A program made the position numbers and the translations under genes. Shown here one piece after another: positions 1-42,967 of a stretch of DNA of 42,967 nt. The stretch is taken from positions 1 through 42,967 of the IMG/VR virus record IMGVR_UViG_2563366803_000007; one strand, written 5' to 3'. Positions within the stretch are counted from its first letter, which is position 1. Every line of letters begins with the position of its first letter. A model generated the notes under the pieces. That model searched no databases. It had not been told where the DNA came from and saw only the letters and a program-made list of their open reading frames with translations. The DNA is from a virus (Duplodnaviria > Heunggongvirae > Uroviricota > Caudoviricetes).

Positions 1-105
1 ATGATTTACATCGGTCTACCGCAATGGTCGCATCCTAAATGGGTGCGGTTGGGGATCACCAGCCTTGAAGAGTATGCCCGCCACTTTAACTGCGTGACGC
101 GGTAA
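1..105 (+). pseudogene. 5' fragment (34 codons) of a host DUF72-family gene (yecE-like), ending in a stop at the prophage junction
   Basis: ORF MIYIGLPQWSHPKWVRLGITSLEEYARHFNCVTR* is far shorter than the family; everything downstream is phage-like; resemblance to E. coli YecE N-terminus is from memory only. Confidence 0.4.
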
Positions 106-268
106 ATTTAAAAATCGACAAATATCGTCCAGGAGCGCCATTTTTAATGGCTGGAGATAGCATCCAACATAAGTTGTTTGCAATGTTTGGCGAAATTCAC
201 TGATTTCTCATGCCCCACCCATGCCCCAAGACGCCTGCCACGCGAAATCTTCCATCAATTGACAGCAA

Positions 269-586
269 CTAAACAACCGCATTGTCCTGGCGCACATCGC
301 AGATAGTAAACGTCACTACACCGATGACAGTAACATCGTCCAGGGCCTCGCCCTCGATCGCTTCACCATCTACGGTAATCAGCGACTTTCCTCTCAGCGT
401 AGCAAGTTCAGTGCCGCCGCCGTGCTGGATCAGAACCTGACTACCTTGCTTTGGCTTCAGGGAGATATCCAGCACAACGTAACCACAAGATTGCTCGAAG
501 ACGAGCGTATTTGGACCAACATTGCAGATCGAGTTAACCGTTAATCGCTGTTCCGTGTAGTCCGTCGCGGGTGATGGAAAGCCCAT
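269..586 (-). CDS. UmuD'-like protein (105 aa) beginning at the position of the UmuD cleavage site; no SGDSM-type catalytic motif seen
   Basis: Translation starts MGFPSPATDYTEQR, matching the UmuD/MucA region GFPSPAADYVEQR; C-terminal DDVTVIGVVTFTI resembles the UmuD C-terminal strands; ATG overlaps upstream stop (TAATG) with GGGAGGG RBS. Confidence 0.5.
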   Translation of the reverse strand: MGFPSPATDYTEQRLTVNSICNVGPNTLVFEQSCGYVVLDISLKPKQGSQVLIQHGGGTELATLRGKSLITVDGEAIEGEALDDVTVIGVVTFTICDVRQDNAVV

Positions 587-825
587 TACAGAACCCTCCC
601 CATGTTGGCCATCATCCACAGCCGGTTTTCGCTATGGTCGGTGGTTTTGTCGATGAAATACGTTTGTTCCCGCGCGATCCAGGAGTTCGCCTCAACCTCG
701 GAAAAGTGGATGCCGTGCCGGCGCAGTGCGGTAACGAAGTCTCTGGTATGAAGGTACTGGAATCCCTTGGAGCTGCGCAAAATGGACTCGCGGAAAGCCG
801 CGGCGATGTCTGACTGTCGAAGCAT
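586..825 (-). CDS. Small basic hypothetical protein (79 aa), first gene of a LexA-box-controlled bicistron
   Basis: ATG at 823..825 preceded by GGAGGG RBS; LexA box about 20 bp upstream; stop overlaps start of the UmuD'-like gene. Confidence 0.5.
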   Translation of the reverse strand: MLRQSDIAAAFRESILRSSKGFQYLHTRDFVTALRRHGIHFSEVEANSWIAREQTYFIDKTTDHSENRLWMMANMGRVL

Positions 826-845
826 GACCTGCCCTCCGATAAACA

Positions 846-861
846 CTGTATTTATATACAG
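846..861 (-). promoter_or_regulatory. LexA (SOS) box CTGTATTTATATACAG overlapping the putative promoter of the 586..825 / 269..586 operon
   Basis: Matches CTGT-N8-ACAG; extended sequence ACTGTATTTATATACAGTA is close to the E. coli consensus TACTGTATATATATACAGTA. Confidence 0.6.
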
Positions 862-896
862 TATTGTTTTCGAGAGAACATATCAAGCAGCAGGTG

Positions 897-1658
897 TTAA
901 AGGACTGCCACCCCCCGATCTGACATGCGCGCTTTAACACGCGAGTAGATGCCGTCCAGATCAGATTGCGATTTCGCTGTCGCATGAATCCCATGTGATG
1001 CGTGTTCAATCGTAGCACTATAGAAATTGCTCCCCGCGTGGTAACAATCCCCGACTCCGTGATACTTTGTCGTCGTTGGCGCTGTATATGTCCCGGTAAC
1101 TGATACAACGTCAGAGCTTCCGATATAAATCAGCATGCCTGTAGTGCTCACAGCCAGAGCAACAAATATCCAGTCGCCATCAGAAACGCCTGTCGGCACT
1201 TTAGCAATACCGGAACTGAATCCCCTGACAGTGGATACCAGCTGTCCATTTGTTGGATTAATCCATAATGCTGCACCGCCGTTCGCTGCGGCACCGTCTG
1301 CGGTACCAAACAGGTAGCCACCTGTAGCCTTATATTGTACTACAGCCCAGTGAGTCCACGGGCCACCCACATCGGCAATATTGCTCACCAGTCCATATAA
1401 GCCGCCCACAACCGGCTTGAGGTAGTTTGTGCCATATGTCGGAGGATTGCCGGCACTGAGAGGCGTCAACGTCCTGCCATTAACCAGATCTATCAGACTG
1501 GAAGAATCCGGGCCAAATTCCCATTGACCAAGAGCATCGGATTCAGGAGCAGGGGTAGGCTGAGGAAATAGTGGTGTTAATTTTGATGTATCAACATACT
1601 CCGCTCCAGTAAATGGAACCGAGTAACTTAATTGCTGCAGTGTATAGGACATTACCAT
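897..1658 (-). CDS. Hypothetical protein, distal tail-fibre-associated (253 aa)
   Basis: Last gene of the late operon, overlaps the stop of the upstream spike gene; Gly/Thr/Ser-rich composition. Confidence 0.45.
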   Translation of the reverse strand: MVMSYTLQQLSYSVPFTGAEYVDTSKLTPLFPQPTPAPESDALGQWEFGPDSSSLIDLVNGRTLTPLSAGNPPTYGTNYLKPVVGGLYGLVSNIADVGGPWTHWAVVQYKATGGYLFGTADGAAANGGAALWINPTNGQLVSTVRGFSSGIAKVPTGVSDGDWIFVALAVSTTGMLIYIGSSDVVSVTGTYTAPTTTKYHGVGDCYHAGSNFYSATIEHASHGIHATAKSQSDLDGIYSRVKARMSDRGVAVL

Positions 1659-3632: not shown

Positions 3633-4501
3633 TATGCGTACTCCTCAATGATGACATAGCCGTTAGCGCCCTTCCCTGATGCCCTGGCGATTGAGTCATA
3701 TGATGCGCCAGCACCACCTCCACCAGGGAAAAATCCATCATCACCGGATGAACTAACGTGTGGAAGGCCACCATAACTACTGTGCGATGCGCCACCTACA
3801 CCACCCAGGCTTACACCTGATCCTCCCTGTCCTCCCTGACCAGCCACTGAGAATATTGTCCCAACAGATGGAGCTCCCGGAATTCCGCCAGCAGAATTAC
3901 CAGCAGACTTTCCCCCCTTACCACCGCCAGCAGAGATACCCAACGCGGTAATGGTAGTGTCTCCCCCATCACCGCCATCCCCTGCATTCCCTGCTGCAAC
4001 TGCCGCGCCACCAGCGCCAATAACGATATTCGCCCCATTAATGGTGCTTACGTCATATAATCCCTCAACATATGCACCACCCGCCCCACTAGGTGCACCA
4101 GTCCCTGCGACGTCTGTTCCCTTACCCCCACCGCCTGCACCCCATGCTTTAATTCTGACTTTTTTAGTGCCAGCAGTTTTTACCCATGCTCCGCTAGCGG
4201 TAAAAACCTGAATGCGGAGCAGGCGTCCTTCTGCCTGATTATTAAGTGCGGACTTGAGAATATTTAGTAACGTGGCAATGTTCCCATTATCCAGGACATC
4301 GCTTCCTGTGCTATCCGCCATGAATTGTGCAAGGACGGCAGCAATTGTAGAGGATTGCCGTAGTGCTTTATTTACTTGTGCTGACGAGGCTTTGCCGGAA
4401 AGAAAACCAGATGCCAGTACAGATAGCGCTTCATAATCAGCCTGTGATAATACGTTTGCCCCGCTACCAGTAGCGAAGGGTTTAAAATCGTTAGTCGCCA
4501 T
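3632..4501 (-). CDS. Tail fibre protein with glycine-rich repeat region (289 aa from ATG at 4499..4501)
   Basis: N-terminus MATNDFKPFATGSGANVLSQADYEAL; long Gly-rich GAGGGGKG/GGDGGDGG tracts; TAATG overlap with upstream gene. Confidence 0.55.
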   Translation of the reverse strand: MATNDFKPFATGSGANVLSQADYEALSVLASGFLSGKASSAQVNKALRQSSTIAAVLAQFMADSTGSDVLDNGNIATLLNILKSALNNQAEGRLLRIQVFTASGAWVKTAGTKKVRIKAWGAGGGGKGTDVAGTGAPSGAGGAYVEGLYDVSTINGANIVIGAGGAAVAAGNAGDGGDGGDTTITALGISAGGGKGGKSAGNSAGGIPGAPSVGTIFSVAGQGGQGGSGVSLGGVGGASHSSYGGLPHVSSSGDDGFFPGGGGAGASYDSIARASGKGANGYVIIEEYA

Positions 4502-26626: not shown

Positions 26627-26702
26627 TGGTGCTGGTTAACGGACTTGAACCGCTACCCATTCGCTTACAAGGCGACTGCTCTACCATTGGAGCTAAACCA
26701 GC
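26627..26702 (-). tRNA. tRNA-Thr (anticodon UGU), phage-encoded
   Basis: Manual cloverleaf: 7-bp acceptor stem GCTGGTT/AACCAGC, D stem GCTC/GAGC, anticodon loop CTTGTAA, T loop TTCAAGT, 3' ACCA encoded. Confidence 0.6.
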
Positions 26703-26707
26703 ATATT

Positions 26708-26782
26708 TGGCGGGACAGCGTGGACTCGAACCACGATAAGAAGGTTAACAGCCTTCCGTAATGACCTTTATACGACTGACCC
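26708..26782 (-). tRNA. tRNA-Asn-like (anticodon GUU), possibly degenerate
   Basis: Manual cloverleaf: anticodon stem GAAGG/CCTTC, loop CTGTTAA, T arm CGTGG-TTCGAGT-CCACG, CCA encoded; one mismatch each in acceptor and D stems. Confidence 0.45.
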
Positions 26783-41419: not shown

Positions 41420-41665
41420 ATGCAGACAATAATCCAGATCGAGCCAAACGAATGGGTTTCAGAGGACTTGCTGATGGCAGTCACAGGGATGAAACGTGGA
41501 ACCATTACACGGGCCCGCAAATCATCCTGGCTGCTTGGGCGTGAGTATAAGCACGTTTCCCCTGAAGGTGACCCAAAGCCAACCAGCGAATGCATGTACA
41601 ACCGCAAAGCGGTAGACGCATGGATTCAGGCGCAAAAGCAACCATTGGGTGATCGGGCGGTATGA
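41420..41665 (+). CDS. xis: Excisionase-like protein (81 aa)
   Basis: Small DNA-binding-like protein immediately upstream of int. Confidence 0.55.
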   Translation: MQTIIQIEPNEWVSEDLLMAVTGMKRGTITRARKSSWLLGREYKHVSPEGDPKPTSECMYNRKAVDAWIQAQKQPLGDRAV

Positions 41666-41707: not shown

Positions 41708-42967
41708 ATGAGTAAAGAATCATACCCAACGGGCGTTGAGAACCACGGAAAGTCACTCCGCATATGGTTCATTTTTAAAGGTAAGCGTGTCAGGGAAAAC
41801 CTCGGTGTCCCTGACACCGCTAAAAACAGGAAGGTGGCCGGGGAGCTGAGAACGTCAGTTTGTTTCGCTATCCGCATGGGGACCTTTGACTATGCGGCCC
41901 AATTCCCCAACTCGCCAAATCTGAAAACTTTCGGCATCGGGAAGAAAGATATCACCGTAAAAGATCTGTCTGAAAAATGGCTTGAGCTTAAACGGATGGA
42001 GATCTGCGCTAATGCCATAAACAGGTATGAATCGGTGGTGAGAAGCATGCTGCCGAGGGTTGGCGCGAATAAGCTGGTTTCGTCTGTGACAAGAGAAGAG
42101 CTTCTCTATATCAGGAAGGATATGCTGGCGGGGGATAAAGGGTTGAGTGTGGTGACGGTAAACTACTACATGACCACGATCGCGGGTATGTTTCAGTTCG
42201 CTGTTGATAATGGCTATGTGAGTGAAAACCCGTTTAACGGCATCAAGCCGCTAAAGAGGGCCAGGATAGAACCAGATCCGCTCACACGTGATGAATTCGT
42301 TCGCTTCATAGATGCCTGCAAGCATCAGCAAACGAAAAACCTGTGGTCAATTGCGGTATACACAGGATTACGTCACGGTGAGTTGGTATCCCTCGCATGG
42401 GAAGACATAGATCTGAAAACTGGAACGATGACCATACGCCGGAATTATACGAAACTCGGTGATTTCACTCTACCAAAAACCGAAGCCGGTACCGACAGGG
42501 TCGTTCACCTGATCAAGCCAGCCATTGACGCTTTGAGGAACCAGGCGGAAATGACCAGGTTAGGCAGGCAGTATCAGGTTGAGGTACAACTGCGGGAGTA
42601 TGGCCGAACGGTCATTCACGACTGTACATTTGTGTTCAATCCTCAGTTGGTTAAAAAAAGTGGCAGCGTAGGTTACCTGTACAAAGCCGATTCAGTTGGT
42701 GACTCATGGGATGCGGCGCTTAAACGGTCAGGTTTAAGGCACCGCAAGGCGTATCAGTCGAGACACACTTACGCCTGCTGGTCGCTGTCTGCCGGGGCCA
42801 ATCCGAGTTTCATTGCCAGCCAGATGGGACACTCCAGCGCCCAGATGGTTTTCAATGTTTACGGCGCCTGGATGGCCGACAGCAGCAGCGATCAGATTGC
42901 TATGTTGAACCAGAAATTATCGGACTTTGCCCCATCCATGCCCCACGGCATGGCGATAGGAATATGA
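41708..42967 (+). CDS. int: Tyrosine integrase (Rac IntR-like family, 419 aa)
   Basis: C-terminal catalytic region with YTGLRHGE, HTYACWSLSAGANPSFIASQMGHSSAQMVFNVY blocks; strong resemblance to Rac IntR from memory. Confidence 0.9.
   Translation: MSKESYPTGVENHGKSLRIWFIFKGKRVRENLGVPDTAKNRKVAGELRTSVCFAIRMGTFDYAAQFPNSPNLKTFGIGKKDITVKDLSEKWLELKRMEICANAINRYESVVRSMLPRVGANKLVSSVTREELLYIRKDMLAGDKGLSVVTVNYYMTTIAGMFQFAVDNGYVSENPFNGIKPLKRARIEPDPLTRDEFVRFIDACKHQQTKNLWSIAVYTGLRHGELVSLAWEDIDLKTGTMTIRRNYTKLGDFTLPKTEAGTDRVVHLIKPAIDALRNQAEMTRLGRQYQVEVQLREYGRTVIHDCTFVFNPQLVKKSGSVGYLYKADSVGDSWDAALKRSGLRHRKAYQSRHTYACWSLSAGANPSFIASQMGHSSAQMVFNVYGAWMADSSSDQIAMLNQKLSDFAPSMPHGMAIGI

Follow-up and report, generated by a model that had tools for sequence, protein, structure and literature searches.

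The yecE gene of Escherichia coli is a long-established, classical integration site of both Stx and non-Stx lambdoid phages, and two of the closest known groups of relatives of the prophage analyzed here are integrated there. The Stx2e phage phiP27 (AJ298298) is integrated in yecE and carries an annotated 11-bp attL/attR, TTAACTGCGTG, with attL placed next to int in the GenBank record. In E. coli O145:H28, 21-bp attL/attR sequences have been described for yecE prophages such as Stx2_12E129_yecE and PPyecE_EH1910 (CCGTCACTTTAACTGCATGAC / CCGTCACATTAACTGCGTGGA; Nakamura et al., 2021; PMC8112680). The same study describes, inside ompW prophages, a secondary attB of 21 bp with almost the same sequence (GTCATGCAGTTAAAGTGGCGG, which reads CCGCCACTTTAACTGCATGAC on the opposite strand). 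A third group of relatives consists of the Klebsiella phages Mulock, RothC and RothD, which have been sequenced as free virions and encode near-identical integrases. As for the target gene itself, a literature search on the function of YecE and the DUF72 family found it mentioned only as a marker of integration sites.

The stretch of viral DNA analyzed in the present work (hereafter, the window) spans 42,967 nucleotides. We consider it very nearly certain that its positions 1–268 represent one of the two recombinant junctions formed when a temperate phage equipped with a tyrosine integrase of the phiP27 family inserted into codons 26–32 of E. coli yecE. The host gene and the crossover region are the same as in the O145:H28 yecE prophages, in which int likewise lies at the other end and reads towards yecE; the 21-bp att sequences of those prophages, as well as the secondary attB within the ompW prophages, overlap window positions 78–98 (PMC8112680). 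The attP/attB identity of the window, however, is a perfect 21 bp and is shifted by 2 bp relative to theirs. Similarly, the 11-bp phiP27 repeat corresponds to window positions 86–96 and falls within the 21-bp core described below, whereas the attP/attB identity of phiP27 itself is limited to these 11 bp. A yecE::prophage junction is thus already known, the core and layout found here agree with the published descriptions, and the locus reveals no new biology; the exact boundary and core can nevertheless be used to delimit and type the prophage and to design attB/attP PCR assays.

The host–phage boundary

The window opens with an ATG-started open reading frame of 34 codons (positions 1–105, TAA at 103–105 in the ORF listing). 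Its first 96 bases are identical to bases 1–96 of E. coli K-12 yecE (b1868, 272 aa; 96/96), the first mismatch is at base 97, and from there on the alignment shows the window and K-12 yecE to be unrelated. The encoded peptide consists of YecE residues 1–32 followed by Thr-Arg-stop. Positions 1–96 (plus strand) are the 5′ end of yecE, codons 1–32, and belong to the host, whereas the triplets ACG CGG TAA at positions 97–105 (plus strand), which supply the stop codon, differ from yecE, equal the sequence that follows the core in the attP of phage Mulock, and are derived from the phage. The true left boundary of the prophage is therefore base 97, the first 96 bases of the window being host DNA.

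The genomic context is that of yecE as well. The ATG of the ORF overlaps the end of yecD (ATGA) exactly as in the wild-type gene, the order in K-12 being yecD-yecE-yecN-cmoA-cmoB. In a related lysogen, RefSeq labels the same fragment, located right after yecD, as a pseudogene ('incomplete; missing C-terminus'), and the missing 240 yecE codons are found directly after the integrase gene in relatives, where this remainder matches PF01904 (2.9e-48). The 34-aa peptide itself has no Pfam match, as expected for a sequence too short for such a search, and the case made by the DNA is unaffected: the assignment to yecE relies on the 96/96 identity and the yecD synteny rather than on a domain match. The first-pass annotation had taken this ORF for the N-terminus of a much longer host DUF72 (yecE-like) protein, and the identity with K-12 yecE bears this out.

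Downstream of the ORF, the 163 bases at positions 106–268 contain no convincing gene, in agreement with the earlier description of about 160 bp of non-coding DNA preceding genes of phage type. The genes that follow are indeed those of a phage: a UmuD-like protein (phrog_3469), tail-fiber and tail-fiber-assembly genes and, further on, baseplate, TerL and others. The window is cut at gene boundaries, from the first base of the host gene fragment to the last base of the int stop codon (42967).

The att core and the probable strand-exchange region

The comparison with an uninterrupted host locus and with the sequence past the integrase, which had been suggested along with the initial reading of the locus, yielded a 21-bp direct repeat. 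We aligned four sequences: K-12 yecE, the window junction, the junction on the integrase side in related prophages, and attP as it stands uninterrupted in Mulock, a free phage of Klebsiella. The 21-mer GCCCGCCACTTTAACTGCGTG, at window positions 76–96 (plus strand), is common to attB, attP and both prophage junctions. Around this core, attB of K-12 reads ...GAGTAT-core-GAGGGC..., the window junction ...GAGTAT-core-ACGCGG..., the int-side junction (strain KFu024) ...CATCAC-core-GAGGGC... and attP ...CATCAC-core-ACGCGG..., with both phage flanks matching Mulock. Mulock differs from the window prophage by one substitution in the core (TTTAATTGCGTG), by its Klebsiella host and by the structural genes next to the att arm.

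An exact-match scan located GCCCGCCACTTTAACTGCGTG once in the window, once in K-12 yecE and once in a related lysogen (L002), at the junction on the yecE side, distal to int. The same 21-mer occurs once, 32 nt past the int stop codon, in seven related loci (L001 and L006–L011), among which L006–L011 encode the identical integrase protein and L001 has an int gene with 99.7% DNA identity. In all seven, the int stop is followed by 32 bases, the core, yecE from codon 33 onward, yecN and cmoA. The window goes no further than the int stop codon, and the other copy of the core in this prophage has to be deduced from these relatives. By analogy with every one of them, it should start 33 bases past the window; that is, we predict that position 42967 is followed by 32 phage bases matching GAATGATAAAAATCAGTAAGTTAGTGCATCAC, then by GCCCGCCACTTTAACTGCGTG, which would mark the other prophage boundary, and then by GAGGGCAAC... 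(yecE codon 33 onward). Under the naming used in the phiP27 record, the window junction is the int-distal one, 'attR'.

The first-pass annotation had placed the att core within positions 1–268, which holds, and more specifically within the non-coding spacer, which does not, the core being located in the 3′ end of the truncated ORF. For the core to lie at positions 106–268, the 34-codon ORF would have to end for some other reason. The spacer is indeed non-coding and separates host-like from phage-like genes, but base 96, rather than 105 or a later position, is the last that matches yecE. Moreover, the free phages Mulock and RCIP0034 have the whole of 97–268 joined directly to the core and int, and the 76–96 21-mer, rather than any part of 106–268, is what is repeated past the integrase in relatives. 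We regard a core in the spacer as highly improbable.

With respect to the point of strand exchange, the 21-bp identity in the window does not reveal it, and two homologous phages were used instead. The two annotated 21-bp junction repeats of Stx2_12E129_yecE differ at the positions that match window 85 and 94; at each junction, the base towards the phage is of phage type and the one towards the host is of host type. Furthermore, the attP/attB identity of phiP27 is confined to TTAACTGCGTG (window 86–96). Given this segregation of bases and the 11-bp limit in phiP27, the crossover probably takes place within TTAACTGC, at window positions 86–93 (plus strand). A length of approximately 8 bp is typical of the overlap region of tyrosine recombinases.

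The core of this attP is also flanked by the inverted repeats TCACGC/GCGTGA; we rejected these as defining features of core-type sites because the pattern is not conserved in phiP27 or the Stx2 phage.

The integrase and the arms of attP

The last gene of the window (41708–42967, plus strand) encodes a tyrosine integrase of 419 aa with an N-terminal arm-DNA-binding domain (PF12167 Arm-DNA-bind_2, 5.5e-24) and a catalytic domain (PF00589 Phage_integrase, 2.6e-17). In an alignment with the Tn1549 integrase (6en0), TGLR(222), RHT(352-354), GH(375)S and NVY(385) are each paired with matching residues; these we take to be the catalytic motifs of the tyrosine recombinases. Directly upstream of int, an 81-aa excisionase is encoded at 41420–41665 (plus strand; PF06806, 2.8e-34; phrog_539). 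The integrase is 76.8% identical to that of phiP27 (over 99% of the protein), 75.5% identical to those of the yecE-integrated Stx phages of O145:H28, and 98.8–99.3% identical to those of Mulock, RothC and RothD (98.8% for Mulock). These values place it in a diverged branch of the phiP27/yecE family that is nearly identical to the Klebsiella phage integrases.

The non-coding phage DNA at positions 97–268 (plus strand) forms the arm of attP distal to the integrase: its homologue, approximately 90% conserved, adjoins the core and int without a break in the genomes of the free phages Mulock and RCIP0034. In Mulock, the int 3′ end is followed by the same 32 bases, the core and then the 97–268 homologue, with the same arm motifs and spacing. 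Searches of window positions 1–1000 detected no RNA family in Rfam (E up to 1) and no promoter-like site, and of the two terminator-like sites in this interval neither is inside 1–268. What the arm does contain is a tandem pair of candidate arm-type integrase sites, two copies of CATGCCCCA spaced 11 bp apart (209–217 and 220–228, together 209–228; plus strand), singled out by their repetition and conservation. A matching, near-identical candidate pair, TGCCCCATCCATGCCCCA, is embedded in the 3′ end of int, on the int-proximal arm (42928–42945, plus strand). The 18-mer TGCCCCAYCCATGCCCCA, which includes two TGCCCCA units, is found exactly twice in the 43-kb window, at 211–228 and 42928–42945, where 0 occurrences are expected.

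To place these repeats in an evolutionary context, attP was rebuilt for five phages (this prophage, Mulock, RCIP0034, Stx2_12E129_yecE and phiP27) whose integrases are 75–99% identical. All five contain TGYCCCA pairs on both arms and in the same orientation, at −82/−71 from the core center on the int-proximal arm (−81/−70 in Stx2_12E129) and at +125/+136 on the distal arm (+128/+139 in phiP27, where the proximal pair is again at −82/−71), so that the yecE prophages of O145:H28 share these core distances with the window. Extra copies of TGYCCCA are present on the distal arm of the Stx2 phage and of phiP27, those of phiP27 forming a further motif pair. On account of their position, repetition and conservation, we interpret the TGCCCCA repeats as candidate arm-type Int-binding sites. 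A match to the IHF consensus, WATCARNNNNTTR, falls beyond the end of the window at −32, on the arm next to int, in the rebuilt attP, in Mulock and in P27; the same scan gave no match in window positions 97–268.

This organization resembles that of phage lambda in several respects: the integrase has a separate arm-binding domain at its N-terminus, its gene is preceded by that of an excisionase and points towards att, the core is short, and each arm bears tandem repeats, whose distance from the core is approximately 70–80 bp on the side of int and 125–135 bp on the far side. We take this repeat layout to be close to that of the lambda P′ and P arms. In contrast, there is no detectable DNA similarity to lambda, the core and arm motifs differ, lambda Int is matched only weakly and over part of the sequence (E about 1e-3, query residues 127–234), and the target is inside a protein-coding gene whereas that of lambda is intergenic.

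Two variants of this arrangement were encountered. In the Klebsiella phage RCIP0034 (L004, 1280–1800), the integrase is 88.6% identical to that of the window and the arm motifs are the same and at the same distances, with a different core and a different core-proximal arm on the int side (TCTCGTCATATCACCACGGTG); directly past the core, the two sequences are homologous again. These differences look like a switch of target specificity within a single integrase lineage. The second variant is seen at positions 4293–4360 of L006 and L010, one of them in a 5.36-Mb chromosome, where the identical integrase is encoded beside a yecE allele whose downstream sequence is clearly distinct (GAGGGCAACACCACCCTGTATGCGCTACCG...). 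This divergent allele, together with the 99% identity of the Klebsiella phage integrases, suggests that the same integrase and att are shared across bacterial genera.

Recurrence of the junction in other genomes

A 201-base probe across the junction (window 30–230) was covered over at least 80% of its length in 91 of 5426 complete E. coli genomes. The integrase gene was detected in 92 of the same 5426 genomes, 81 of which match at least 80% of the probe at 95–99.7% DNA identity, the remaining eleven being distant matches of 60–80% identity; the junction count matches that of the integrase carriers. In strain KFu024, both junctions are present in one chromosome, approximately 42.7 kb apart, a distance near the window length. 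In the assembly collection, 1000 indexed blocks contain the identical integrase protein. Megablast searches with window segments 1–1200, 1–25000 and the int region against the complete E. coli genomes, along with an exact-protein lookup of the integrase, returned no record that matched the entire window; the best match (79% coverage, 97.7% identity) is integrated elsewhere.

The recurrence of the junction bears on an origin by some event other than site-specific recombination, for example by deletion, by an IS-mediated rearrangement or through homologous recombination of two prophages. The phage arm from window base 92 onward is also present within another prophage in CFS3313 and at least 12 other genomes, which implies that this module moves by additional routes. 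Such an event is nonetheless a very improbable source of the window junction: the same base-exact junction is found in 91 genomes, the two reciprocal junctions, taken with attP and attB as the parents, agree with a clean and conservative exchange inside the 21-bp identity, and phiP27 and the yecE Stx phages use the same crossover point. Least probable of all, to the point of being negligible, is that the 34-codon ORF is a complete small gene and marks no integration junction, as its ATG, its stop and its ATGA overlap with yecD might suggest, given that its 32 first codons are identical in DNA to those of a 272-codon gene that is intact in K-12, that the missing 240 codons follow the integrase in relatives and that RefSeq treats the fragment as a partial pseudogene. 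The four-way alignment and the base-exact recurrence thus contradict this account no less than the placement of the core in the spacer and an origin by a non-site-specific event.

In the E. coli genome CFS3313 (L012, 1949–2777), homology covering the att arm and the operon of the UmuD-like gene starts at window base 92, that is, with the last 5 bp of the core. This copy is inside another prophage, beside a tail-fiber-assembly gene and a truncated ORF, and could be either the relic of an insertion at a secondary site or the end point of a recombination event. A prophage-in-prophage integration comparable to that at the attB within PP_1 (PMC8112680) was considered and found unsupported, as the left flank has no yecE-like sequence.

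Proposed course of integration and excision

Site-specific insertion into yecE accounts for the features of the window junction as follows. Host DNA extends to base 96, its last 21 bases being the core shared by attB and attP, and the phage DNA that begins at base 97 immediately closes the yecE frame, leaving the 34-codon stump. By analogy with lambda-type integrases, the C-terminal domains of the integrase would bind the core, whereas the N-terminal arm-binding domain would contact the TGCCCCA pairs at 209–228 and in the int 3′ end. The strands would then be exchanged within the approximately 8 bp of TTAACTGC (86–93). During excision, the window junction would recombine with the int-proximal junction predicted 33 bases past the window, with the assistance of the excisionase (41420–41665), and the prophage may still be able to excise.

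The int-side junction and the fate of yecE

At the int-side junction of relatives, an ATG shares bases with the int stop codon (ATGA), and the 12 phage codons after it lead in frame into yecE from codon 26 onward. The resulting hybrid ORF is annotated as a 259-aa DUF72 protein (L001, 3765–4544; L006–L010, 4257–5036) and is kept in all relatives examined. In Mulock, where the phage is free, an ORF of 21 codons starts from the same ATG and runs across attP. It can be imagined that the prophage places yecE under int-linked expression with a remodeled N-terminus, the stump at 1–105 being the discarded original start; should the hybrid be translated and active, yecE would be rewired by the prophage and not just inactivated. 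We consider this improbable. The residues that replace the original 25 show no similarity to those of YecE, and the Pfam match of the hybrid begins only at profile position 10, both of which make loss of yecE function more likely than an active hybrid.

Neighboring genes

Next to the att arm, two genes are encoded on the minus strand: a 79-aa protein of a family without an assigned function (825–586; phrog_3893) and the 105-aa UmuD-like protein (586–269 from the ATG in the ORF listing, or from 619 if an upstream GTG is used; phrog_3469). The two are joined by a TAATG overlap, and neither protein has a match in Pfam. Just upstream of this two-gene operon, CTGTATTTATATACAG (846–861) is the only occurrence in the window of CTGT-N8-ACAG, the LexA-box consensus. 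Judging by these features, the two genes and the box look like an SOS-controlled cargo module beside the att arm. Unlike the yecE Stx phages, the window prophage has no stx-type cargo at this end, and the LexA-box operon with its UmuD-like gene takes the slot that is occupied by dinI, with a LexA-like box, in the yecE Stx2 phage. Far from the junction, two adjacent phage tRNA genes, for tRNA-Thr(TGT) and tRNA-Asn(GTT), are located on the minus strand at 26627–26782.
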